A model generated the notes under the pieces. It was not told the DNA's origin and made no database searches. It was given only the letters and a program-made list of their open reading frames with translations. From an uncultured Candidatus Saccharibacteria bacterium (GTDB lineage Bacteria > Patescibacteriota > Doudnabacteria > UBA920): DNA of 64,000 nt. Position numbers and translations under genes: made by a program. Below are positions 1,985 through 54,230 of this stretch, piece after piece. Each line of letters begins with the position of its first letter. Positions within the stretch are counted from its first letter, which is position 1. The stretch spans positions 4,538 through 68,537 of the forward strand of contig CAYGEJ010000004.1 of assembly GCA_964348935.1 (NCBI GenBank), read 5' to 3'.

Positions 1985-3667
1985 TTACAATGTCCTTTTA
2001 ATATGTGCCATAGCATAGGACAAACTACCCCCCACTTTCTTACCGGGATTAAAAATATTTTGGGGGTCAAAAATCTGCTTAACTTCCGCAAACAACTTAG
2101 TTATATCTGGGCCAAACATTTTTTCCAAATAAGGCGAGCGAATAATCCCGTCATTATGCTCAGCGGTTATACTACCCTTATATTTGAGCACCAAGTCATA
2201 AACCTCATCAGCCAGTTTAGGAATAATTTCCCGTTGGTCCGGCTTAGTTAAATCCATAAGCGGAATTATATGAAAATTTGCGTCCCCCGCGTGGCCGGCA
2301 ATTGTATAAATTAAAGATGGATATTTATTTAATATGGTGTTGAGCTCAGGCAAGAATTGCGGTAACTCTTTTGGGTGCACCACAATATCGTCTATAAATG
2401 GAGCGGTAGACAGTCCGTGGGTATGCTGTCTTAGCAGGCTAAAACTCTCACGCCTGACAGTCCAATACTTCTGAGCCTCTTGGGCGTTTTTGGTAATATG
2501 GGTTTTAAGCTTAAATTTTGCCTGAACTTCCTTTTCTGCCATTAAGATTTTTTGATATATTTCCACTTCCGTATCACCAGTAAATTCCGCGATCAATATA
2601 AGCTTGGGTACTCCGCCGGTCAAAGTCATCCACAATTCTGGTAAGAATTGCAAACCTAGAAAAATTAAATTTCCTTTCATCCGCTTTAACATATCTGGAA
2701 AAAACTTCATTGCCAGCTTAAAAGTATGATCGTCAAAACTTTCAAAACTTTCCGGTTTATAACTCACTACTGTACTCACCACATCACCCAAATTTTTCAA
2801 ATCTTTAAGAAAAATTACCAACAGCTCACTTTTGGGTTTAGGCCTGACTAATTTAAATTTAATTTTAGTTATTAGTCCCAAGGTTCCTTGCGAACCGGTA
2901 ATTAACTTTGCCAAATTAAATTTGGATTTATTCCAAACTTCCCAAAGTAAATACCCAGCCGAGTTTTTACTAGTGGTTGGCTTAGCTAGTTGAATTCTCT
3001 CATAATTATCCTTAATTAACCGAAAGGTCTTGCGGTAGATATCGCCTTCAAAAGTAGATAATTTTAATTTCTGTTCCAGTTGTTTTTCATCCAGCTCTCC
3101 AAATACACAAGACTCACCGTTGGACATTACCATAGTCACTTCATCCACATAATCCTTGGTCTGCCCATAAGACAACGACTTTTCACCAGCTGAGTTATTC
3201 GCCACCATTCCGCCAACTGTATTTAAACTTTTAGAAGCGGTGTAGCACGGTAATAACAAATTTTGTTCTAAAGTTTTTTGTTCAAAATCGCGATAAAAAA
3301 CACCTGGCTCCACCACAGCAAACCCGGCAGTAGTGCTGCGCCCTACTGGTTGTAAACTGCTAACCGACAAAATATGGTGAAAATGCGAAGTGAAATCCGC
3401 AATTATACTTTCCCCCAATGCTCCGCCAGACATATCCGTCCCGGCGCTTCTGGCAGTTATGCAAAGCTCGGAATAGTTTTTCTTATTTTGGTTTACAAAT
3501 TTTACCAGAGTCTCTACATCTTTTTGGTCTTTAGGGTTAACAACGCACGCCGGTTTAATTTCAAAAATACTAGCGTCACGACTGTATTTCACCAAAGTCT
3601 CATCGTCAATTCTAACCTCGCCTTTAAACCCGCTACTATTTTTTAGCAACTCAAATAATTTATTCAT
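1985..3667 (-). CDS. FAD-linked oxidase (GlcD / D-lactate dehydrogenase-like FAD-binding dehydrogenase)
   Basis: 560 aa with an FAD-binding PCMH-type N-terminal region (VVNPKDQKDVETLVKFVNQ..., SAGTDMSGGALG) and a C-terminal FAD-oxidase domain. Confidence 0.75.
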   Translation of the reverse strand: MNKLFELLKNSSGFKGEVRIDDETLVKYSRDASIFEIKPACVVNPKDQKDVETLVKFVNQNKKNYSELCITARSAGTDMSGGALGESIIADFTSHFHHILSVSSLQPVGRSTTAGFAVVEPGVFYRDFEQKTLEQNLLLPCYTASKSLNTVGGMVANNSAGEKSLSYGQTKDYVDEVTMVMSNGESCVFGELDEKQLEQKLKLSTFEGDIYRKTFRLIKDNYERIQLAKPTTSKNSAGYLLWEVWNKSKFNLAKLITGSQGTLGLITKIKFKLVRPKPKSELLVIFLKDLKNLGDVVSTVVSYKPESFESFDDHTFKLAMKFFPDMLKRMKGNLIFLGLQFLPELWMTLTGGVPKLILIAEFTGDTEVEIYQKILMAEKEVQAKFKLKTHITKNAQEAQKYWTVRRESFSLLRQHTHGLSTAPFIDDIVVHPKELPQFLPELNTILNKYPSLIYTIAGHAGDANFHIIPLMDLTKPDQREIIPKLADEVYDLVLKYKGSITAEHNDGIIRSPYLEKMFGPDITKLFAEVKQIFDPQNIFNPGKKVGGSLSYAMAHIKRTL

Positions 3668-3774
3668 TTATTTTTATTTCAATTACCTTGAATTTATTTT
3701 ATTATAGCACTATATTTGCTTAAATTAAATTTTTTGATATACTTTCAATCAAGCTACCTACAAGGAGGCGCTTA

Positions 3775-3975
3775 ATGAATTACGCGATACTTTTCGCCAA
3801 ATGGATGCTGGGTGCAATGTTATTTCTCTGTTCTTTTTTTGAGCTCCGTGGTTTCTACCACCTATGCTCACGCCATACATTCAAACACTTCCACAACGGA
3901 TATTTTGTTTGCCTAGTTCTAATAGCACTTGGCTATTGGCTAATTAAACATTTAGACGCGCCAGAACAATCCTAA
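3775..3975 (+). CDS. Small hydrophobic membrane protein (66 aa)
   Basis: Strong RBS AAGGAGG 7 nt upstream of the ATG. Intrinsic terminator immediately downstream (3977..4009). Confidence 0.5.
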   Translation: MNYAILFAKWMLGAMLFLCSFFELRGFYHLCSRHTFKHFHNGYFVCLVLIALGYWLIKHLDAPEQS

Positions 3976-3976
3976 T

Positions 3977-4009
3977 GCCACGCAAACCTCCCCCACGCGT
4001 GGCTTTTTT
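3977..4009 (+). terminator. Intrinsic terminator (GCCACGC ... GCGTGGC + TTTTTT)
   Basis: GC hairpin followed by a T-tract directly after the stop of 3775..3975. Confidence 0.6.
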
Positions 4010-4727
4010 ATTTATAATCTAGCAAGTTAAAATCTTTAACTTCAAAAATTACATTCTTTCGCTCAACAACTATTTTCCAACCATTTTTTTTAGCTACTCT
4101 TGTAAGTTGTAAATTAGGATTAAATGCAAGCGGTTTGCCAACTAAAGACAGCATAGCTACGTCACTTTCCGTATCCCCCACAGCAATAGAATTTTTTAAA
4201 TCCACATTCAATTCTGTCGCCAAACTTTTTACAATTTTGCTTTTATGAAAAGCTGAATCTAAACTTACTGCCTTGCCTGTAAACTTTTCATTTATTACTT
4301 CTAGTTCTGTACCAAAACATAAATCAAACCCAATAGTTTTGGCGTAAGAAGAAACTATGTAAGACGGTGAACCAGAAATAGCTACTAAATAAAAACCCTG
4401 CTTTTTGAATTTTTTTATTAAGTCTCTAGTAAACCTATATACCCTATCTTTTTGGTAATTAATAACTAAATCTGCAACCTTCTTAACTAAAGTATAGCGC
4501 TTGCCAGTTATATGCTTTACGTAAATTTTTACTACTTTGTCTATGTAGGCTTCGTAGCTTCCTTTACGGTCTAACCATGCTAAATATTCTTTTTCTATTT
4601 CTTTTTTGGCTACTTGTGGAAAAATCCCAGCTTCTACCAAGGCATGACTAAGCTCAATAACCAAAGACGAACGAAATATTGTTCCGTCTATGTCAAAAAT
4701 TGCTAATTTTTTTAATTGGTTATTCAT
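4008..4727 (-). CDS. HAD superfamily hydrolase (HAD-IB / phosphoserine-phosphatase-like)
   Basis: FDIDGT motif I near the N-terminus and a GDTESD-type motif IV (AVGDTESDVAML). Confidence 0.75.
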   Translation of the reverse strand: MNNQLKKLAIFDIDGTIFRSSLVIELSHALVEAGIFPQVAKKEIEKEYLAWLDRKGSYEAYIDKVVKIYVKHITGKRYTLVKKVADLVINYQKDRVYRFTRDLIKKFKKQGFYLVAISGSPSYIVSSYAKTIGFDLCFGTELEVINEKFTGKAVSLDSAFHKSKIVKSLATELNVDLKNSIAVGDTESDVAMLSLVGKPLAFNPNLQLTRVAKKNGWKIVVERKNVIFEVKDFNLLDYK

Positions 4728-4754
4728 AATTCTTTAAGTACATTAATACTAACT

Positions 4755-4805
4755 CTTTTTTTGACAAAAAGAAAACGGGCGCGAAAGGTAATCCTTCCGC
4801 GCCCG
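4755..4805 (-). terminator. Intrinsic terminator for the GC-rich gene 4827..5192 (stem CGGGCGCG / CGCGCCCG)
   Basis: 8-bp GC stem. On the minus strand it is followed by TTTTCTTTTTGTCAAAAAAA. Confidence 0.6.
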
Positions 4806-4826
4806 AAGCAGACAATGTTCATGGGC

Positions 4827-5192
4827 TTATTTGCCCACCTTAGCACGAGCATGGTCGTCGTGTGCCCGCACCCCTTCCCGTACCCGCCTGGAATCCTCGG
4901 ACTCCCATAATTCGCGGGTCGACATACCCGGACTGAGTGGGTAATTTCCGGGATGGTTGAGTTCTGTAGGCTTAAAAACAAGTGCCCCGGCGTAGTACAG
5001 CCCGAAAGTAAGAACTCCCCACATTGGAACGAGGGAAAGTGGCCAGAACTTCTGAACAGGGTCTGGCACGCCCGACTGTTTCAGCCACTGGACAATTGAC
5101 GCCGGCTGGGTTACCAGCAAAGCGACGATAATCACCCAAAGCACAGAGCCGACAAAAATCAGTCGACCCAAGGTCAAACGGGGTAAATACAT
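4827..5192 (-). CDS. Hypothetical membrane protein encoded in a GC-rich islet (about 121 aa, start MYLPRL...)
   Basis: RBS GGAGGAG immediately upstream of ATG at 5192. Two or three predicted TM helices. Terminator downstream. GC content markedly above the surroundings. Confidence 0.5.
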   Translation of the reverse strand: MYLPRLTLGRLIFVGSVLWVIIVALLVTQPASIVQWLKQSGVPDPVQKFWPLSLVPMWGVLTFGLYYAGALVFKPTELNHPGNYPLSPGMSTRELWESEDSRRVREGVRAHDDHARAKVGK

Positions 5193-5295
5193 AGCTCCTC
5201 CATCTATAACCACACAGCCGCATGTAAGATTTACGACTGTAATTAAAAATTTTACAGCAAAATTGCAAGCACGTCAATAAGGAAAAATTTACCAT

Positions 5296-5324
5296 TTGAC
5301 AACTTCTTAAAGCAGTAATACAAT
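5296..5324 (+). promoter_or_regulatory. Perfect sigma70 consensus promoter TTGACA-17 nt-TACAAT
   Basis: TTGACA at 5296-5301, a 17-nt spacer, TACAAT at 5319-5324. It drives rightward into an ORF-poor GC-rich segment. Confidence 0.55.
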
Positions 5325-5330
5325 TCAAAA

Positions 5331-5813
5331 ATCCCGTCACCTGTAGTGGGTTTTAAGTTCACTTGTTGATATGCAAGTGGATTACCTGTGCAAGGAATGG
5401 GTCTGGAGAAGACAACATGAACGTCAACCCCAACGGCGCCGGCTTAGTCGGCGTCACCTGCATCACTCCCGGCGCCACCAACCTCAACTAGCCAAATTTC
5501 GGCAAAGTGAAGGTTGAACCTTCGACAGCTAGTCATGCGAAGGTGGCTATTCAGACGTTCGGCTAGGAACATCCACACCATAAGGAGGCCTACTTGATTC
5601 CACCCTGGAACAAAGTTGTATAGGGCGATGTATCTTGCCCTATCGCTAAATCTGGATTCGGATAAAAACAATAGGCCTAAGCTTTCCTGCAATAAAGCCT
5701 ATCCGTGCTTGGTCAATTTGTGTATTTCCACCGCTTACGCCAACCGCACACCATCCACTCCAGAACTTCACTCTTGGGGGCGATTGTTTCCACATCGCCC
5801 CTACCCCTTTTTT
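5331..5813 (+). ncRNA. Candidate structured non-coding RNA of about 480 nt, family unidentified. Bounded by the consensus promoter and an intrinsic terminator.
   Basis: GC-rich and ORF-poor segment. It contains only a 24-codon ORF (5417..5491, MNVNPNGAGLVGVTCITPGATNLN) with a GGAGAAG RBS. It ends with GGGGCGAT...ATCGCCCC + TTTTTT at 5776..5813. Confidence 0.3.
5776..5813 (+). terminator. Intrinsic terminator (GGGGCGAT ... ATCGCCCC, then TACCCC TTTTTT)
   Basis: Seen directly. Closes the putative ncRNA unit. Confidence 0.55.
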
Positions 5814-5922
5814 AAACAACTCGCCTTAAGGCATTTTTTATTTACCCTTTTCACTTTTTACTTTCCTGTAAATATAAAATACTTTATACTTACCCTATTG
5901 CCTAATTACTATTTACTATAAA

Positions 5923-6624
5923 ATGATTAAACTTATTGCCTTTGACTACAACGGCACACTACTTTCCGACACTGCTATAGTTTTAAAAGCGGAAAATATC
6001 GCCTTAACATCTGTAGGCCTTAAGCCAATTACACTTAAGCACTTTCAGGAAACTTTCCAAATTCCCATTATAAAATATTGGGAGAATTTAAATATTCCTG
6101 AAAGCTTTGTTAAAAAACATTTTCAAACCATAGAAGACACTTTTCACTTAAATTACGAAAAACTTGTTAACACCAGTCGAACCAGAGCTGGAAGCAAAGA
6201 AGTCTTAACTTGGCTGAATACAAACCAAATTCAAGCGGTAATATATAGCAATCACCCAACGTACCGAATTAAAGAGCAACTAGTTAGACTTAAAATGTTG
6301 GAGAAATTTAATGCTATTTTAGGTCGCGAAACTACGGACGATTTCACTCACATGCTAGAACGAGGTAAAGAAAAAAAACTGGCTGAATATATAAAAAAGC
6401 ATAAGTTTAAACCGCACGAAGTAATATCTATTGGCGACACCGAGGAAGAAATAGAAGTAGGAAAGAAATTTGGATTTTATACAGTTGGAATAACCGGTGG
6501 ATACAACTCTGCAAAGAGACTTAAAAAACACCAACCAAATTTTTTAATCCATAATATGTTGGAATTAAAAAATATTATTAAAAGAATTTCCGCCAAAGGC
6601 GGATCCGCCTTTGGCGAAAAATAA
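5923..6624 (+). CDS. HAD superfamily hydrolase (phosphatase)
   Basis: LIAFDYNGTLL motif I, a conserved GDTEEE motif, and 233 aa length. Confidence 0.7.
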   Translation: MIKLIAFDYNGTLLSDTAIVLKAENIALTSVGLKPITLKHFQETFQIPIIKYWENLNIPESFVKKHFQTIEDTFHLNYEKLVNTSRTRAGSKEVLTWLNTNQIQAVIYSNHPTYRIKEQLVRLKMLEKFNAILGRETTDDFTHMLERGKEKKLAEYIKKHKFKPHEVISIGDTEEEIEVGKKFGFYTVGITGGYNSAKRLKKHQPNFLIHNMLELKNIIKRISAKGGSAFGEK

Positions 6625-11665: not shown

Positions 11666-12535
11666 ATGAATAGAGGAATAGAAATGTCTTGGTCTAGCCC
11701 TGTCCTACACCCCACAGTTGAGCAGTACCGTAAAAATGGACTGGTCTACTACAGAGTAGCCAACGCCTATTGCACGGGTACTGTACACCAGCAAGGTGCG
11801 CACGTGACCGAATACTCCCCCGGAATGCACAAACCGGTACTGTGGATGAGCGAACTGTCCAACTTCGAACCCGGAAAGCCTTTTCGTGGCGGGATCCCCA
11901 TCTGCTTTCCTTGGTTTGGCAAAGGCCCAAATGGTGACATGGAACCCCTTCACGGCCCTGTCCGGATCGCTAACTGGCAACTGGAAAAAAATACCCTGAA
12001 TCACTACGGAGAGACCAAGCTGGTGTTTTACTACAGCGAACCGGAAATGTTCATTCTCCGGTATTCCGTAGTGTTCGGTAGTGCTCTTACCACCACCCTG
12101 GAAATTAAAAACTCCAGCACCAAAAACATCCACTCGTACGAGGCCATGCTTCACAACTACTTTGCAGTTAAGGACGCACAAAAAACTTACGTTACCGGAC
12201 TCGGGAGCGTGCCGTACCTGAACCGTATAAACAACGAGCAAACTCAAGGGGAACCTACGGCAACTTTTTTCAATCAACGGATTGACCGGCTGTACAATAA
12301 CCGGAACACTCTAAGAATAAGTGACACCGTCAACAATCGCATTATTACCACCGACTGTGACGGTATGAAATCAACCTGCCTGTGGAACCCCGGACCGGAC
12401 ATGAAGTTCGACGACATAAAACCCGATGGCTGGAAAGACTTCGTCTGCGTGGAAAACGGGAATGCGAGTGACCAAATTATTTCACTTCAACCCGGAAGCA
12501 CCTGCTACCTCAAGCAAACCATTTCTGTGGTGTAA
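11666..12535 (+). CDS. Aldose 1-epimerase family protein (YeaD-like D-hexose-6-phosphate mutarotase), GC-rich gene
   Basis: GGIPICFPWFG signature. 289 aa. GC content clearly above the flanks. Confidence 0.75.
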   Translation: MNRGIEMSWSSPVLHPTVEQYRKNGLVYYRVANAYCTGTVHQQGAHVTEYSPGMHKPVLWMSELSNFEPGKPFRGGIPICFPWFGKGPNGDMEPLHGPVRIANWQLEKNTLNHYGETKLVFYYSEPEMFILRYSVVFGSALTTTLEIKNSSTKNIHSYEAMLHNYFAVKDAQKTYVTGLGSVPYLNRINNEQTQGEPTATFFNQRIDRLYNNRNTLRISDTVNNRIITTDCDGMKSTCLWNPGPDMKFDDIKPDGWKDFVCVENGNASDQIISLQPGSTCYLKQTISVV

Positions 12536-17896: not shown

Positions 17897-17925
17897 TTGA
17901 CATATACCCCCTAGGGGTATATAAT
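17897..17925 (+). promoter_or_regulatory. Consensus sigma70 promoter TTGACA-17-TATAAT. Its spacer is a near-perfect palindrome ATACCCC(C)TAGGGGTAT, a candidate CsoR/RcnR-family operator.
   Basis: TTGACA 17897-17902, spacer TATACCCCCTAGGGGTA, TATAAT 17920-17925. It lies 27 nt upstream of the csoR-like start. Confidence 0.6.
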
Positions 17926-18227: not shown

Positions 18228-20522
18228 ATGAAAAATAACACTGTCCAAATAAAAGGTATGCATTGTGCTTCTTGCTCAAATATTATTGAGAAGACTTTTA
18301 AAAAAATCAGCGGCGTAGAATCTGCAGAAGTAAGCTATGCCACGGAAAAAGCTAAAATTGCCTTCGATCCGACAAAAACCAGTTTACATGAACTCTCCAA
18401 ACACATTGAACCGCTTGGCTATTCCATAGACCTTCCCAAAACTGCTGAAGAAATGGGTATGTCCGCCAACGAACACGCTGAGCATATGGGCCTGAACCAA
18501 TCAAAAAAAGAAAAATTGGCCGAGGTAGCCGATATGAAAACCAAAGTATTCACCGCAATTCCGCTTGCGGTATTTAGTGTGTTGGTAATGAGTTGGGATT
18601 CTTTAGTCCAACTCAAGCTTATTTCTGAAATGACTCCTACAATCTACCAATTTATTCACCACTTGTTACCAATTTTTGCCACTTACATACTCTTTGTAAT
18701 TGGCAAGCCTTACTTGTTAGGCTTTTATCGTTTCCTCCGCTACGGCAAAGCCAATATGGACTCTTTAATAGGAATTGGCACCTCGGTCGCCTTTTTGTAT
18801 AGTTTTATAATTACCGCGTTTGAAAATCCCCTCCGTCCGTTTATAAATGTCGATCAAACTTACTACGATGTTACTATTGTAGTAATTGCTTTTATTACCC
18901 TTGGAAAATATTTGGAAGCCAAGGCAAAAATAAAAACCGGAGATGCTATAGAAAAATTGCTCAATCTTCAAGCAAAATCCGCACTGGTAATTCGCGACGG
19001 TCAACAACTGGAAATTCCTATCACTCAAGTCACCCATGGCGACAATATTGTAGTCAAACCGGGTGCCCGTATTCCTGTAGATGGGGTGGTTACCGAAGGC
19101 TCTTCTTTTGTAGACGAATCTATGATTACCGGAGAACCTATGCCCGTAGAAAAAAAACTTAATCAGTCGGTAGTCGCAGGGACAATTAATACAACCGGGT
19201 CATTTATTTTTAAAGCCACTAAAGTTGGTGCTGAAACCCTGCTGGCCAACATAATTAAAATGGTTGAGGAAGCTCAGGGAAGCAGGGCTCCGATTCAGGC
19301 ACTGGCAGACAAAATATCCGCGATCTTTGTGCCTATAGTTTTAGTACTGGCCTTTGCCACATTAAGCGCCTGGTTAATTTTAGGTAGCACCACGTTTGGC
19401 TTTTCTCAAGCTCTTTCTTACGGTTTAACTTCGCTAGTGGGGATTTTAATTATTGCTTGCCCATGCGCGCTTGGTCTGGCTACACCAACCGCAATAATTG
19501 TCGGGGTTGGAAAAGGAGCTAAAGAAGGAATATTAATTAAAGATGCTGCGACTTTAGAAAAATTGCACAATGTCACTGCTGTTGTTGTAGATAAAACCGG
19601 CACTATTACCAAAGGTAAGCCCGAACTGGTCGGTATACAAAATTTATCCAAACTTGCAGATTCAAAACTTATTTCTATTCTCGCTAGTCTTGAAAATAAA
19701 TCCGAGCATCCAATTGCTCACGCCATAATGGAATATGCTAAAATCAAAAATATTCCGCTATCTGAACTTTCTAATTTTGAAATAATTCAAGGCCGTGGTC
19801 TTAAAGCCACGATTGAAAATATAGAATACTTTGCCGGCAATCTTCTATTAATCTCTGAACTACATTTAACTCTGAATTTACAAAATATTGAACGCGACAC
19901 CTTACAAGGTAAAACTCCTATTGTTCTCGCCACCAAAGAACAAGTTCTTGGGGTGTTTATGGTGGCAGACGCAATTAAACCGGAAAGCTTTGCAGCAGTA
20001 AAAAACCTTCACAAAATTGGAATTAAAGTAATTATGCTTACTGGCGACCATAAAAATACCGCGGAAGCTATTGCCAAGGAGGTTGGAATAGACGAAGTAG
20101 TAGCCGAAGTATTACCTGAAGATAAACTTAATAAAATTAAAGCATTGCATACCCAAGGCTTTATTGTAGCTATGGCTGGTGACGGCATCAACGACGCCCC
20201 TGCTCTGGCTGCGGCCGATGTCGGGATCGCTATGGGAACTGGTACAGATGTAGCCATAGAAACCGCAGGAATTATTCTGCTCAATGGCGATATATCCAAG
20301 CTGGTAAAAGCAATTCACTTATCCAAATTCACTATGCGAGGCATTAGACAAAATTTATTCTGGGCATTTATATACAATATAGTTGGAATTCCACTAGCCA
20401 GCGGAATATTCTTTCCGTTCTTTGGCTGGCTATTGTCTCCGGTATTCGCCGGACTGGCTATGGCGCTATCCAGCGTTTCCGTGGTTAGTAACTCATTAAG
20501 ACTCAAGACTAAAAAATTATAA
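18228..20522 (+). CDS. copA: Copper-translocating P1B-type ATPase
   Basis: N-terminal HMA domain GMHCASCS. TM CPC motif (IIACPCALGLATP). DKTGTIT phosphorylation site. GDGINDAP. TM7/8 YN and M-x-x-SS motifs typical of the Cu(I) subtype. Confidence 0.9.
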   Translation: MKNNTVQIKGMHCASCSNIIEKTFKKISGVESAEVSYATEKAKIAFDPTKTSLHELSKHIEPLGYSIDLPKTAEEMGMSANEHAEHMGLNQSKKEKLAEVADMKTKVFTAIPLAVFSVLVMSWDSLVQLKLISEMTPTIYQFIHHLLPIFATYILFVIGKPYLLGFYRFLRYGKANMDSLIGIGTSVAFLYSFIITAFENPLRPFINVDQTYYDVTIVVIAFITLGKYLEAKAKIKTGDAIEKLLNLQAKSALVIRDGQQLEIPITQVTHGDNIVVKPGARIPVDGVVTEGSSFVDESMITGEPMPVEKKLNQSVVAGTINTTGSFIFKATKVGAETLLANIIKMVEEAQGSRAPIQALADKISAIFVPIVLVLAFATLSAWLILGSTTFGFSQALSYGLTSLVGILIIACPCALGLATPTAIIVGVGKGAKEGILIKDAATLEKLHNVTAVVVDKTGTITKGKPELVGIQNLSKLADSKLISILASLENKSEHPIAHAIMEYAKIKNIPLSELSNFEIIQGRGLKATIENIEYFAGNLLLISELHLTLNLQNIERDTLQGKTPIVLATKEQVLGVFMVADAIKPESFAAVKNLHKIGIKVIMLTGDHKNTAEAIAKEVGIDEVVAEVLPEDKLNKIKALHTQGFIVAMAGDGINDAPALAAADVGIAMGTGTDVAIETAGIILLNGDISKLVKAIHLSKFTMRGIRQNLFWAFIYNIVGIPLASGIFFPFFGWLLSPVFAGLAMALSSVSVVSNSLRLKTKKL

Positions 20523-22628: not shown

Positions 22629-22787
22629 ATGCCGGCTGTTGAAGAACCCATTGAATCACCAGTCAAGCCACCCAATCCGTTAGATCCCAGAATTTCTCCC
22701 GATACGCACCGAGAAGAGCGTATTCCAACGCCTTTCCGACCGCGTACTATCCCAAAACCAACTCGGTATGAACCGAGCAAGAACTGA
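22629..22787 (+). CDS. Small proline-rich protein (52 aa) inside a GC-rich islet. Alternative to the 85-aa minus-strand ORF of the track.
   Basis: RBS GGAGG 9 nt upstream of the ATG. Hairpins flank it on both sides, and the downstream one (CACAAGCGAG...CTCGCTTGTG + CTTTT) is terminator-like. The opposite-strand ORF has no RBS and spans that hairpin. Confidence 0.3.
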   Translation: MPAVEEPIESPVKPPNPLDPRISPDTHREERIPTPFRPRTIPKPTRYEPSKN

Positions 22788-22887
22788 ACGTGACAACCTA
22801 GCACAAGCGAGACTGGAGGACTCGCTTGTGCTTTTAATATGTCCATACTAATTTTGTATTCTTAAAATTTAGGAATATAATACTAAT

Positions 22888-36127: not shown

Positions 36128-38152
36128 CTAAAGAATTTCTTGTACTATCCCTTGTACAATATCGCCATCATCAGGAACAATTGGAACATGTACAGGATTA
36201 TTACTTTTAGGTAATAAAATCCTTCGACCATCTCGTTTGTCATAATATTTTATAGTAACATTTTCACCACCCAATAAAGCAACAACCCTATCACCTGTTT
36301 GTCCTTTTTCTGAAAATCTACATAATACCAAATCTTGTTCATTTATACCTGCCATATTCATAGAATCGCCAACTGCCCTCACAATAAAATATTTACCGCC
36401 TGGTTTAAGTTTACTTTTTTCCACATTAATATATTCTTCAATATTTTCTTCACTAAGCAAAGGATTACCACATGGTGCTAAACCAACTAATGGTATTTTG
36501 ACCATTTCTTTAATTTTATCTACTAATTTTACTAAATTATGAGCTGGTATTACATGATCTAAATTTTGTTTTTTATGTTCATTAAAAATACTATTAAAAT
36601 AATTTCTAAGATTCAGATCTACAATATATACATATGTACCCATTATACCTCTAGTAAGTAGGGTCTTATAAATATTAATTATATATCTTTCAAGTTCATT
36701 TGGATCTGTAATACCGTTTCGCCCATTAATATCAAAATATTTTTCTTTATTCACCCCAAATTTTTTATTTATAGGATCGAAATAAAATTCAGGCCCTATA
36801 ATAACCCCAACATAATTTAAATCATACCCTTGAACAGTATGTATACAACCAATCTCATTTATAGCATTCGGAGAATTAACCCAATCTCTTGCTGTGGAAT
36901 TCCAAATCATTTTTAAACCTTCTATTTCAATATCGTAATCAACTAAACTTTTCTTGCCCTCCTTTGTATGCCATGGCCATGCATAGCCTGCCACAACTCT
37001 TGAAAGTTTGTGTAGCTGCTCCTTCTCCTTAATTTTATTTACCATATCTTCTGCATTTTCAAAAATTCTAAAATCATAATTTTGAAATATTGTAGTTTTA
37101 GGCTTCACTAAATTAAATATATCTTCTATAGCAGTAATGTATGTATCTCCTGCCTCAACACGCATTTGTATATTTAAGCCGTACTCTTTAGCTTTTAAAT
37201 TTTTAAAATCTTCAGGTCTAATGTCGGCAGGTTTTACTGTTTGATTCTCATCATAAAAAAAGATTTTATGCTTCGCTGATTTAATAACCCAATCAAGTTG
37301 TGTTCCTTCATTTCCGAAACCTAGAAATTGATTTACTTTATCAAAAGCACCAAAACCCATAATGCCTTTTCTACGTTGCAACCTATGTGATTCATCTACA
37401 ATTAAAACGTCGTATTTCTCCTTTACCACATCGTTTGGGCCTATAACCATATTCGCCTTCAAACCTTTAACTTTACTAAAGACTTTTTTTATTGTTGTGC
37501 GTAACGAAGCCATCGGCACAACTAATGCAATAGATAAATCTTTTGTCTCTTCCTGTTCTTTTAAGTATTTAAAAAGGTAAGTTGCAAGAATAGTCTTACC
37601 TGTACCAGGCTTCCCATTTACTATAAAAGTATTTTCATTATTCTTTTTAATATCATTAAAAATTTGTTTTACAACAAAAAACTGATCTTCGTTTAAAGAT
37701 TTATATGGGGAATATTTAAATAAATCACTATTTTTTATTACCTCCAATGGATTTACTACAACCCCCATTTCCATAAGCTTGGACCAAGCAATTTCAAATT
37801 TAGCTCTATACTTAAACCTGTCGTAGTAGTTATGATTCTTTAAGCCACCATTACCATTTTGAATAATATATTTTCCGTCAGCTGATATGTACTGAATAAG
37901 CCAAGACTCAATATCCAAAGCTGCAGAAACATTAAACTCCTCATCTGTAATAATATGAATTTCTTCTAATTTTCTTCTCTCTGGATTTTCATAATGTTGT
38001 TTACTTCTGTAATAGGCATTTACAGTCTGCCCAATATAAACCTCCTGTTTGTTTTCTAATACATAAACTACAGGCCAATTTCTACCAAAATTAAAATTTT
38101 TAATTTTGTCAAAATTGTCTTTATTATATTTAAATGTGACAATATTTGACAT
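36128..38152 (-). CDS. Tripartite fusion protein: N-terminal GIY-YIG nuclease domain, central P-loop DUF2075 (Schlafen-group-3-like helicase) NTPase, C-terminal LexA/UmuD-type S24 serine peptidase domain
   Basis: GIY-YIG: VYVLENKQEVYIGQTVNAYYRSKQH. Walker A GKPGTGKT at aa 180-187. Walker B VLIVDESHR at aa 248-257. S24: Cys561-Gly562 (APCGNP), Ser597 in AVGDSMNMAGI, Lys635 in VTIKYY. The Cys-to-Ser distance is 36 aa, from my recollection identical to the UmuD Cys24-Ser60 spacing. Confidence 0.8.
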   Translation of the reverse strand: MSNIVTFKYNKDNFDKIKNFNFGRNWPVVYVLENKQEVYIGQTVNAYYRSKQHYENPERRKLEEIHIITDEEFNVSAALDIESWLIQYISADGKYIIQNGNGGLKNHNYYDRFKYRAKFEIAWSKLMEMGVVVNPLEVIKNSDLFKYSPYKSLNEDQFFVVKQIFNDIKKNNENTFIVNGKPGTGKTILATYLFKYLKEQEETKDLSIALVVPMASLRTTIKKVFSKVKGLKANMVIGPNDVVKEKYDVLIVDESHRLQRRKGIMGFGAFDKVNQFLGFGNEGTQLDWVIKSAKHKIFFYDENQTVKPADIRPEDFKNLKAKEYGLNIQMRVEAGDTYITAIEDIFNLVKPKTTIFQNYDFRIFENAEDMVNKIKEKEQLHKLSRVVAGYAWPWHTKEGKKSLVDYDIEIEGLKMIWNSTARDWVNSPNAINEIGCIHTVQGYDLNYVGVIIGPEFYFDPINKKFGVNKEKYFDINGRNGITDPNELERYIINIYKTLLTRGIMGTYVYIVDLNLRNYFNSIFNEHKKQNLDHVIPAHNLVKLVDKIKEMVKIPLVGLAPCGNPLLSEENIEEYINVEKSKLKPGGKYFIVRAVGDSMNMAGINEQDLVLCRFSEKGQTGDRVVALLGGENVTIKYYDKRDGRRILLPKSNNPVHVPIVPDDGDIVQGIVQEIL

Positions 38153-39164: not shown

Positions 39165-39671
39165 ATGAGTTATGGTTTAACCGACCTTACCAGCGGTAAA
39201 GAAGTCGATACAAACTTTATTGGATATCAGCCGATGACCGGTATACGCATTGGCGAAGACCAATTCGACTGGGAAAACATGTGCAAGGTATTTTTGCACG
39301 TTTTCGTGAAAGTTTCGATGAATGCAATTCCTCAAATTGTGCAAGAGGTTCTAATGAAGCTGCACAAGGATTACCAACCCATTCAAAGCAGCTTCCAACT
39401 CTCACGCCATGCCCCAGTTTCCCAGGAGCCCGGGCAGTTTTGCAACATCAACAGCGTTGGCCAAAAAGCTTTCTGCGTAACAGTTGACGAAGACTGCCAC
39501 AAAGTGCGCTTTGGTCTCTACATCTTCAGCGTCAACGACTTCTGCTGCTTCGCATACCACATAATTTCCGGCGGGTTTCACGGAATCACGCCAACCCCGC
39601 AAGCGGTGAACAAACTCCTCAACAGCCTGTTCGCCAACTTCCACCCCATGTGGATTCGTCCGCGAATGTAA
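39165..39671 (+). CDS. Hypothetical protein (168 aa) in a GC-rich islet, Cys-rich
   Basis: Strong RBS AAGGAGG 6 nt upstream. Downstream hairpin + T-tract. About 50% GC versus AT-rich flanks. No motif recognised. Competing minus-strand ORFs lack RBS. Confidence 0.4.
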   Translation: MSYGLTDLTSGKEVDTNFIGYQPMTGIRIGEDQFDWENMCKVFLHVFVKVSMNAIPQIVQEVLMKLHKDYQPIQSSFQLSRHAPVSQEPGQFCNINSVGQKAFCVTVDEDCHKVRFGLYIFSVNDFCCFAYHIISGGFHGITPTPQAVNKLLNSLFANFHPMWIRPRM

Positions 39672-53219: not shown

Positions 53220-54230
53220 TCAGGCAACTTCTCGAGTCGTTACGATATTTTTGAGTTCGGCGAGTGTAGGCATTCCACTATGCCCGCCAATGTGTTCAAT
53301 GTTCCTAGCCGCCACCCATGAGCCGAGCCGTAAAGATTCGGAGTGGGTTGCACCAGAAAACAAACCGTATAAAAAACCGGTTGTAAACGCATCACCCGCA
53401 CCAGTGGTGTCGACCACTTTGGAAGGCAAAGGTTTGCTGTAAAGCACTTCGTGATTACCGTTTTCACGAAACACCGCAACTGCCGCACCTCGGTCACCCA
53501 AAGTAATAAGGGTAACTTTTGGTCCCATCTTCAACAGCTCAAGAGCTGCCAATTCAGGTTCCAGTTGGGTACCCAGCAAAATACGAGCTTCCTTCTCGTT
53601 GACTTGTAGCACGTCAGTGGAATGAAGAAGACCGAGCATCCTTTCCCGATAAACCAAGAGTTCGGAATTCGGAGTGAGCATATTGCAAACCGAACCAGTA
53701 AGACGGACTTTAAAAATTTGCTCAACCAACTCAAGCTCAGCCATACGCACACCTGTGGCAACCACAAACTTTGCTTCAATTTTGGAAACAAGTTCCAGCA
53801 TTTTAGCATTGTCTAAAGTATACGTTGGCTTGTGGCAAAAAAGTGTTGCCGAGCCGTCATCTTCAAGGACACACAGGGTGTGAGGTGTCGCTGTATCACG
53901 GTCAACCATGAATGGCGTTATGCCATTGGAAGATAATTCGTTCTGGAGTAATACCCCTTCAGAATCCTGTCCAACAGCCCCAGCAATGGTAACACTCAAC
54001 CCCAAACGGGATAAACCCACCGCGCAGTTCACTGAAGAACCAGCAGGAAGCTGAGAATAACCACCGACCGCAAAACGCAAAGTTTGTCCGTCTAGACAAA
54101 CGACATACTCCTGTCCTTCCACAAAAAGATTTTGAACGGTAACTTTCTGCCCCCGAATTTCCGGAGGAACAAAGCCACGAACTTCAGTCTCAACGTTGAG
54201 ACTGGGTAAACACAAAACATCGTGTTTCAT
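53220..54230 (-). CDS. PfkB-family (ribokinase-like) carbohydrate kinase, GC-rich gene
   Basis: C-terminal DTTGAGDAF signature and the GG dipeptide N-terminal motif. GC content well above the neighbours. Confidence 0.75.
   Translation of the reverse strand: MKHDVLCLPSLNVETEVRGFVPPEIRGQKVTVQNLFVEGQEYVVCLDGQTLRFAVGGYSQLPAGSSVNCAVGLSRLGLSVTIAGAVGQDSEGVLLQNELSSNGITPFMVDRDTATPHTLCVLEDDGSATLFCHKPTYTLDNAKMLELVSKIEAKFVVATGVRMAELELVEQIFKVRLTGSVCNMLTPNSELLVYRERMLGLLHSTDVLQVNEKEARILLGTQLEPELAALELLKMGPKVTLITLGDRGAAVAVFRENGNHEVLYSKPLPSKVVDTTGAGDAFTTGFLYGLFSGATHSESLRLGSWVAARNIEHIGGHSGMPTLAELKNIVTTREVA

Follow-up and report, generated by a model that had tools for sequence, protein, structure and literature searches.

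A GC-rich islet of about 1 kb (positions 4776–5815) lies in a 64,000-nucleotide (nt) stretch of DNA from an uncultured Candidatus Saccharibacteria bacterium (contig CAYGEJ010000004.1), hereafter the window. It sits between two divergent, host-like HAD hydrolase genes, at 4008–4727 on the minus strand and 5923–6624 on the plus strand. Two transcription units pointing apart make up the islet: a membrane-protein gene on the minus strand and, on the plus strand, a unit for which we predict a transcript of ~483 nt (5331–5813). A first-pass annotation of the window, made from the letters alone, had described the plus-strand unit as independent and poor in open reading frames (ORFs), encoding either a structured RNA or a small-protein mRNA. 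We consider it likely, with a probability of about 0.8, that this unit is a genuine gene, transcribed on its own, for a structured RNA whose family has not been described.

The RNA unit opens with a promoter, TTGACA-17-TACAAT (5296–5324, plus strand), that matches 11 of 12 consensus positions. Only two sites in the 64 kb, this promoter included, come within one mismatch of its pattern. We placed the transcript start 7 nt past the −10 box and its end at the U-tract. The candidate terminator consists of a 10-base-pair (bp) GC-rich stem (UGGGGGCGAU/AUCGCCCCUA, 5775–5803), a CCCC spacer and six U residues (T6 at 5808–5813); folded alone, its hairpin is more stable than shuffled sequences (z = −3.9). 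Because the U-tract starts 4 nt after the stem, a simple scan that allowed a spacer of at most 2 nt did not list this terminator. A second, weak hairpin with T6 is found at 5823–5839. The GC content of 5330–5813 is 49.6%, far above the window mean of 36.8%, and the RNA unit is the sole stretch in the window of at least 250 nt without a 90-amino-acid (aa) ORF that has a GC fraction above 0.45. No ORF of at least 60 aa fits both the promoter and the terminator. Of the long ORFs, 5616–5921 (plus strand) crosses the terminator and 5444–5692 (minus strand) runs antisense, and none is credible. In all these respects, promoter, terminator hairpin, base composition and long ORFs, the first-pass annotation was borne out. 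One gene caller predicted an 82-aa antisense ORF; it had no relative among 5.8 billion proteins and, used as bait for uncalled homologues, matched itself only. The annotation of the source contig (ENA ERZ27247837 k141_873609), which comes from sample ERR3094292, has no gene called in the RNA interval.

The plus strand of 5330–5813 folds with a predicted minimum free energy of −163.3 kcal/mol, corresponding to z = −5.1 relative to shuffles. The controls gave z = −2.7 to −3.6 (minus strand), −2.6 (membrane-gene mRNA) and −1.7 (a 483-nt piece of the HAD gene). Ensemble diversity was 0.093 per nt, compared with 0.23 ± 0.05 in shuffles, none of the 60 shuffles being as low, and most predicted helices had pair probabilities above 0.9. 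The 5′ domain (5333–5401, plus strand) forms an extended irregular hairpin of four stacked helices, with z = −3.9 to −4.5 on the plus strand and −0.8 on the minus strand. A predicted long-range helix closes the domain downstream, pairing UCUGGAG at 5402–5408 with CUCCAGA at 5758–5764 (pair probability 0.97). Within it, a second predicted long-range helix pairs 5419–5425 with 5554–5560 (pair probability 0.99) and encloses three hairpins. The 3′ portion (5492–5774; z = −2.3 alone) is a predicted multi-hairpin region on the same strand. Its helices at 5479–5516, 5518–5544, 5598–5610, 5620–5643 and 5650–5663, a sub-domain helix with three hairpins (5586–5592/5672–5678) and a hairpin at 5705–5713/5739–5749 all have predicted pair probabilities of 0.85–0.98. 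The five occurrences of UCCAC in the 3′ half did not reach significance (P = 0.13, from the maximum 5-mer count).

The only relative of the RNA that we found lies on a 924-bp Logan contig (L002) of read set SRR12901042, which ends 80 nt into the RNA and also shows the divergent arrangement of membrane gene and RNA. Between the window and L002, 17 of the 36 four-fold degenerate sites in the membrane gene differ (47%), compared with 10% of the core intergenic region (90% identity) and 15% of the first 80 nt of the RNA (85% identity). Both hexamers of the RNA promoter are identical in L002, with one change in the spacer, and the same holds for both hexamers of the membrane-gene promoter. Twelve substitutions fall in the RNA. 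Two base pairs have changed on both sides in a compensatory way (A-U to C-G and U-A to G-C), which accounts for four substitutions; another three alter one side and retain the pairing, one disrupts a pair and four are in unpaired positions, one of which gives an extra basal pair in L002's own fold. Both sequences fold independently into the same 5′ hairpin (z = −3.9 for the window and −4.2 for L002), with 98% of cells paired across the two; the antisense strands do not. The CUGGAG just downstream, part of the site discussed below, is also conserved. These comparisons point to purifying selection on the promoter and the 5′ hairpin, and we take the 5′ domain to be a conserved structured RNA element. 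Together with the z-score of the whole unit, this strengthens the first-pass view of an independent, ORF-poor unit.

Downstream of the 5′ domain, the unit contains a 24-codon ORF (5417–5491, plus strand) that encodes MNVNPNGAGLVGVTCITPGATNLN, a peptide without a charged residue. As the first-pass annotation had noted, this micro-ORF has a candidate ribosome-binding site, a Shine–Dalgarno (SD)-like GGAG at 5405–5408, 8 nt upstream of the ATG. After the ATG, 21 of the 23 sense codons end in C (91% C at third positions, C3, with almost no G3), compared with a C3 of only 25% in the neighbouring membrane gene. The period-3 power of 5412–5486 is 455, the highest of all 75-nt segments in the 64 kb (median 70; 99.9th percentile 310). 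The next-ranked segments that we checked lie inside long ORFs; the second-highest value in the window is at 39486–39560. The bias stops at the stop codon of the micro-ORF, and it is a coding-like signal. Predicted folding of the full-length RNA leaves the SD unpaired with a probability of only 0.01 and pairs codons 2–3 with 5554–5560; among partial transcripts, some are predicted to have a free SD. The GNC triplets of the run are self-complementary in phase, and part of the C3 pattern could serve an 8-bp hairpin, GGCGCCGG/CCGGCGCC. The first-pass annotation had offered a structured RNA or a small-protein mRNA as a choice. The core of that proposal stands and its either/or does not: given the period-3 signal both probably apply, and the 24-codon ORF had been undervalued.

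The Rfam scan suggested at that stage was run on 4600–6100 with all 4227 models of Rfam 15 (cmscan, E ≤ 10), and returned five chance-level matches only, the best being Histone3 (E = 0.15). At Rfam gathering thresholds the whole window contained two tRNAs only, and ARAGORN listed tRNA-Asn and tRNA-Ser only, with no tmRNA. Both programs thus reject tmRNA. The 6S RNA, SRP RNA, OLE, GOLLD, ROOL, HEARO, raiA and other curated RNAs gave no covariance-model match (E ≤ 10), in agreement with the earlier failure to see tmRNA, SRP or 6S hallmarks. RNase P RNA (types A and B) had no Rfam match, either at E ≤ 10 in 4600–6100 or at the gathering threshold in the window. The motif GCCGGCTTAGTCGG, which had been compared with the 3′ strand of RNase P P4, is present at 5438–5451, and the comparison did not hold. 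CR-I (GAGGAAAGUCC, the P4 5′ strand) had no match within two mismatches in 4700–5900, and the GCCGGCTTA/GCCGGCUUA site at 5438–5446 did not match CR-V (ACANAANNCGGCUUA, the P4 3′ strand) within three mismatches, having the CGGCUUA part only. A pseudogene was rejected, as six-frame translations had no Pfam match. Neither the micro-ORF peptide nor the membrane protein matched families of ribosomally synthesized and post-translationally modified peptides (RiPPs), defence systems or phages. Exact and degenerate DNA patterns for the 5′ hairpin, promoter, ORF hairpin and SD-like site identified no homologue in viral contigs or JGI metagenomes; in GTDB genomes they gave eight chance matches, none with the native 14-nt spacing. 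A locus search guided by the membrane protein found no further locus in metagenomes or viral contigs, and blastn against phages and plasmids found no homologue.

The membrane-protein gene (P0001; 4827–5192, minus strand) encodes 121 aa with two predicted transmembrane (TM) helices and follows an SD, GGAGGA (5201–5196, minus strand). It lies upstream of the RNA promoter and has a promoter of its own, TTGACG-17-TAAAAT (5277–5249, minus strand), which agrees with the consensus at 10 of 12 positions. The gene is therefore divergent from the RNA unit and not convergent, as it had first been described. An intrinsic terminator (4805–4776, minus strand), with a 13-bp stem containing ten GC pairs followed by TTTTCTTTTT, forms the left edge of the islet; a homologous hairpin was found in L002. 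The imperfect palindrome CTGTAATTAAAAATTTTACAG (5237–5257) overlaps the −10 box of the minus-strand promoter and its start region, and is a candidate operator. L002 has it unchanged (100%), as part of a 46-nt block without differences. A 674-aa ORF (36128–38152, minus strand) with a LexA/S24-like C-terminal domain has a second CTGTAA...TTACAG palindrome (CTGTAATAGGCATTTACAG, 38007–38025) close to its 5′ end. As the pattern is expected only 0.08 times per window, the two palindromes may share a regulator. In the predicted 5′ untranslated region of the membrane mRNA (5242–5193, minus strand), a 7-bp hairpin, ACAGUCG...CGGCUGU, stands just upstream of the SD and is 100% conserved in L002.

Among 5.8 billion proteins the membrane protein has one close relative (P0002, 64% identical), encoded on L002. 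A profile search of 1.84 billion representative proteins added six distant relatives with 24–31% identity and a common motif, YPxRPDLSTxELW..ED. Their contigs have 49–61% GC, and the gene twice adjoins gatB. On one of these contigs (L012, 57.5% GC), the interval from gatB to the distant two-TM homologue contains an uncalled ORF rich in Cys (~3430–3790, plus strand), and the gatB-linked context is seen again in L015. The AlphaFold model of the membrane protein, with helices at 8–28 and 50–67, is of low confidence (predicted local distance difference test score, pLDDT, 64.5) and was judged too poor for a fold search. The protein had no Pfam, NCBIfam, PADLOC or PDB match. Because the loci of the distant relatives contain no related RNA (blastn, nhmmer and Rfam) and mostly have no gap big enough for one, the linkage of RNA and protein is specific to the islet lineage, in which it has been kept through 36% protein divergence with a nearly invariant control region. 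RNA and membrane protein are probably co-regulated from a shared bidirectional promoter region; conservation of this region suggests co-regulation and leaves joint function unproven.

The membrane-protein gene has a third-position GC fraction (GC3) of 0.58, above the 0.24–0.39 of host genes, and SDs are strong in the islet genes and lacking for most host genes (start regions of 38 ORFs). The islet therefore looks foreign and horizontally acquired, as the first-pass annotation had supposed from its GC content. Past the membrane gene's terminator, L002 carries an extra GC-rich gene (686–859) for 57 aa (MLSTNAANENLPLLDLRGWYKSNKDSIPTEPYTGCSVKVSVFGWKWWGRGSKSDTWF), with its own SD and terminator, that is absent from the window; islet content therefore varies between hosts. 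An imperfect 19-nt direct repeat brackets the islet (4749–4767, CTAACTCTTTTTTTGACAA; 5801–5819, CTACCCCTTTTTTAAACAA; 15 of 19 positions identical). It may be due to chance or may mark insertion boundaries; being T-rich, it was rejected as a target duplication.

Elsewhere in the window, several host genes have TATAAT 5–12 nt before the ATG and look leaderless (same 38 start regions). Genes with a strong SD are few and all GC-rich, namely the membrane-protein gene (4827–5192), 39165–39671 and 53220–54230. The latter two and 11666–12535 are protein genes with GC3 of 0.42–0.60, compared with 0.24–0.39 in the host, and probably arrived by horizontal transfer as well. A further small module of high GC content in this AT-rich genome (22566–22862) has an SD (GCAGGAGG), a 52-codon Pro-rich ORF (22629–22787, MPAVEEPIESPVKPPNPLDPR...) and a strong terminator hairpin (22800–22835). 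Self-contained GC-rich mini-genes may thus be a recurrent kind of foreign insert in this genome. The other near-consensus promoter of the window, TTGACA-17-TATAAT at 17897–17925, has a palindrome (ATATACCCCCTAGGGGTATAT) as its spacer. The gene for a CopA-type P-type ATPase (18228–20522) follows ~300 nt downstream, so the palindrome is probably a metal-responsive operator.

Our preferred interpretation of the RNA unit, held tentatively and at somewhat short of even odds, is a dual-function transcript that combines a folded regulatory or scaffold RNA with a conditionally translated micropeptide. The coding-like signals of the micro-ORF and the fold are both consistent with this. Such a transcript would begin with the conserved 70-nt 5′ hairpin, followed by the 24-codon micro-ORF. 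In the full-length RNA, the predicted helices to the 3′ half would occlude the SD and the first codons of the micro-ORF, so that the peptide would be made only co-transcriptionally or after remodelling of the RNA. The folded 3′ half would be the regulatory or scaffold part, and the RNA would be co-inherited with the divergent two-TM protein in an acquired islet. A stand-alone structured or dual-function bacterial RNA is of a known kind; what is new is the sequence family, and what is unusual is the NNC-periodic ORF. A bolder version, which we think improbable, would make this unit the founding member of a new class of large (~480 nt) dual-function RNAs carried with a two-TM protein on a transferable islet. 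There, the micro-ORF would be read only when the long-range helices open, and the RNA would act as a conditional switch that couples the micropeptide to its membrane partner.

Several observations weigh against a dual-function transcript. The micro-ORF peptide had no homologue or family in protein family searches, including those for RiPP, defence and phage families. NNC periodicity makes a frame open automatically, such that openness alone is no proof of coding; such a skew (C3 of 91%, G3 almost absent) is not normal codon usage, and a constraint at the level of the RNA or of protein binding may lie behind the pattern. In the prediction the SD is almost always paired, and the host mostly does without SDs. 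With regard to the RNA itself, only two instances exist, and their comparison spans the first 80 nt and neither the micro-ORF nor the 3′ 400 nt. The covariation check proposed by the first-pass annotation gave a divided answer: the 5′ hairpin does contain the two double compensatory changes, and slid controls contained none, yet with two sequences only, 111 of 500 shuffles reached the same covariation count. Sub-regions of the 3′ half are individually no more stable than shuffles, so the 3′ fold rests on the predicted long-range pairings, and 7-bp long-range complements are expected by chance in 480 nt. Finally, the related RNA is missing beside the distant homologues of the membrane protein.

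A purely non-coding structured RNA, acting as a scaffold, protein sponge or riboregulator, is a possible alternative, although we regard it as doubtful. The 24-codon frame would then be a by-product of RNA-level period-3, and the GGAG a strand of the domain-closing helix. This would fit the nearly complete predicted pairing of the SD (unpaired probability 0.01) and the paired first codons, the exceptional fold of the whole molecule and a peptide without relatives. It would fit equally with the NNC run, in which the GNC triplets are self-complementary in phase between CA-rich flanks, the periodicity forces an open frame, and third positions (C3 of 91%, compared with 25% for the membrane gene next to it in the islet) depart from ordinary codon usage. 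What speaks for coding is that the periodic run is bounded exactly, by an ATG with a well-spaced GGAG on one side and by a stop straight after the last NNC on the other. In addition, the period-3 signal persists through predicted loops, beyond the reach of hairpin symmetry, and the next-ranked segments that were checked are inside long ORFs. At the opposite end, the unit might be an ordinary mRNA for the 24-aa peptide, its 5′ leader structured and its long 3′ untranslated region without a function of its own. The SD, the ATG and the strongest coding-like periodicity of the window agree with this, the conserved 5′ hairpin could serve to control translation, and the divergent arrangement with the membrane protein is conserved; the peptide might partner that protein, for example as a peptide/immunity-like or peptide/receptor pair. 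An ordinary mRNA is nevertheless unlikely. The 320 nt after its stop codon are GC-rich and free of ORFs, have a well-defined predicted fold and connect to the ORF start through predicted long-range helices, the ORF region alone has z = −1.6 compared with −5.1 for the whole unit, and no biosynthetic or export genes are nearby.

The remaining explanations draw on the neighbours of the unit and are far less probable. In a type I-like toxin–antitoxin system, the two-TM protein would be the toxin and the divergent RNA a trans-acting antisense antitoxin, as for tisB/istR-1, with a palindromic operator between them. A small membrane protein divergently placed from an RNA, a conserved palindrome over the protein gene's promoter and the foreign- or mobile-looking islet all suit such a system. 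However, the RNA and the membrane mRNA showed no significant base-pairing with each other: shuffled RNA gave duplexes at least as good as the best real one in 58% and 81% of cases, and the longest exact complementarity, 10 nt, is at chance level. The protein, at 121 aa, has distant relatives beside gatB without the RNA, and the RNA is several times the length of known antitoxin small RNAs. We hold this explanation to be very improbable. It is harder still to see the unit as a long cis-regulatory leader or attenuator for the HAD hydrolase gene at 5923–6624, with the micro-ORF as leader peptide. The shared orientation and the order of short ORF, structures and terminator, 110 nt upstream of the gene, recall a leader. 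Against this, the unit is foreign (49.6% GC, with SDs) and the HAD gene is host-like (34% GC, no SD), the stop codon and the terminator are 285 nt apart, none of the riboswitch, T-box or leader models matched, and L002 links the unit to the membrane gene instead. We give equally little credence to a decaying remnant of a foreign protein-coding gene, now functionless, with a fortuitous promoter and terminator. The GC-rich foreign composition, the RNY/GNN periodicity on both strands of 5411–5490 and the 82-aa antisense ORF of one gene caller could be read as traces of such a gene. Yet none of the six frames has Pfam similarity, the 82-aa ORF is without relatives, the promoter and 5′ hairpin appear to be under purifying selection with pair-preserving changes, and the fold (z = −5.1) is strand-specific.

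Beyond the housekeeping RNAs, large structured RNAs are rare in bacteria, and each class added to them (OLE, GOLLD, ROOL and RNAIII) has led to new biology. If transcription and translation are confirmed, the unit described here would be a dual-function RNA from an uncultivated, SD-poor lineage and a compact system for RNA-gated micropeptide synthesis, although its extreme rarity, with two metagenomic sightings of which one is partial, limits its value at present.

Among known systems, leader-peptide control regions such as tnaC (24 codons, Rho-dependent) resemble our unit, whose terminator-ended transcript likewise has a 24-codon ORF at its 5′ end, set in a C-rich stretch. They differ in that here ~285 nt of structured RNA separate the stop from the terminator, the C-rich stretch holds a stable 8-bp GC hairpin and the downstream gene is compositionally unrelated. 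The type I toxin–antitoxin loci tisB/istR-1, shoB/ohsC and zor/orz share the layout of a small membrane gene and an RNA gene that diverge from a short, conserved, palindrome-bearing intergenic region. In contrast to these loci, our pair shows no significant RNA:mRNA complementarity, and both products are larger (121 aa here versus fewer than 60, and ~480 nt here versus 60–150 nt). OLE RNA and OapA (RF01071) offer another parallel: there too, genetic linkage joins a small multi-TM protein to a non-ribosomal RNA that is large and well folded. OLE is ~610 nt long, lies in the same orientation as its partner within an operon and is widespread in Bacillota, and OapA has four TM helices. Our RNA does not match the OLE model and is known from two metagenomic contigs, and the distant relatives of its protein partner are without the RNA.

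The closest layout is that of Staphylococcus aureus RNAIII (RF00503), a 514-nt RNA with 14 stem-loops and a 26-aa hld ORF in its 5′ region, the translation of which is delayed by pairing with the 3′ end (PMC12612679). The likeness is one of layout only, as there is no sequence or covariance-model similarity even at E ≤ 10. No agrBDCA genes are present here, the host is an unrelated, uncultivated, AT-rich bacterium, the peptide is uncharged and not an amphipathic cytolysin, and C-rich seed loops are not significantly enriched. Within these bounds, the two RNAs agree in length (514 versus ~483 nt), in their many hairpins and in the terminal terminator hairpin. Both have a strong promoter of their own, divergent from a unit whose first product is a membrane protein. 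The short ORFs are of similar size (26 versus 24 aa) and position, starting ~85 nt from the 5′ end in RNAIII and at nt 87 here, and in both RNAs, by prediction in ours, the translation start is masked by the 3′ part of the same molecule.

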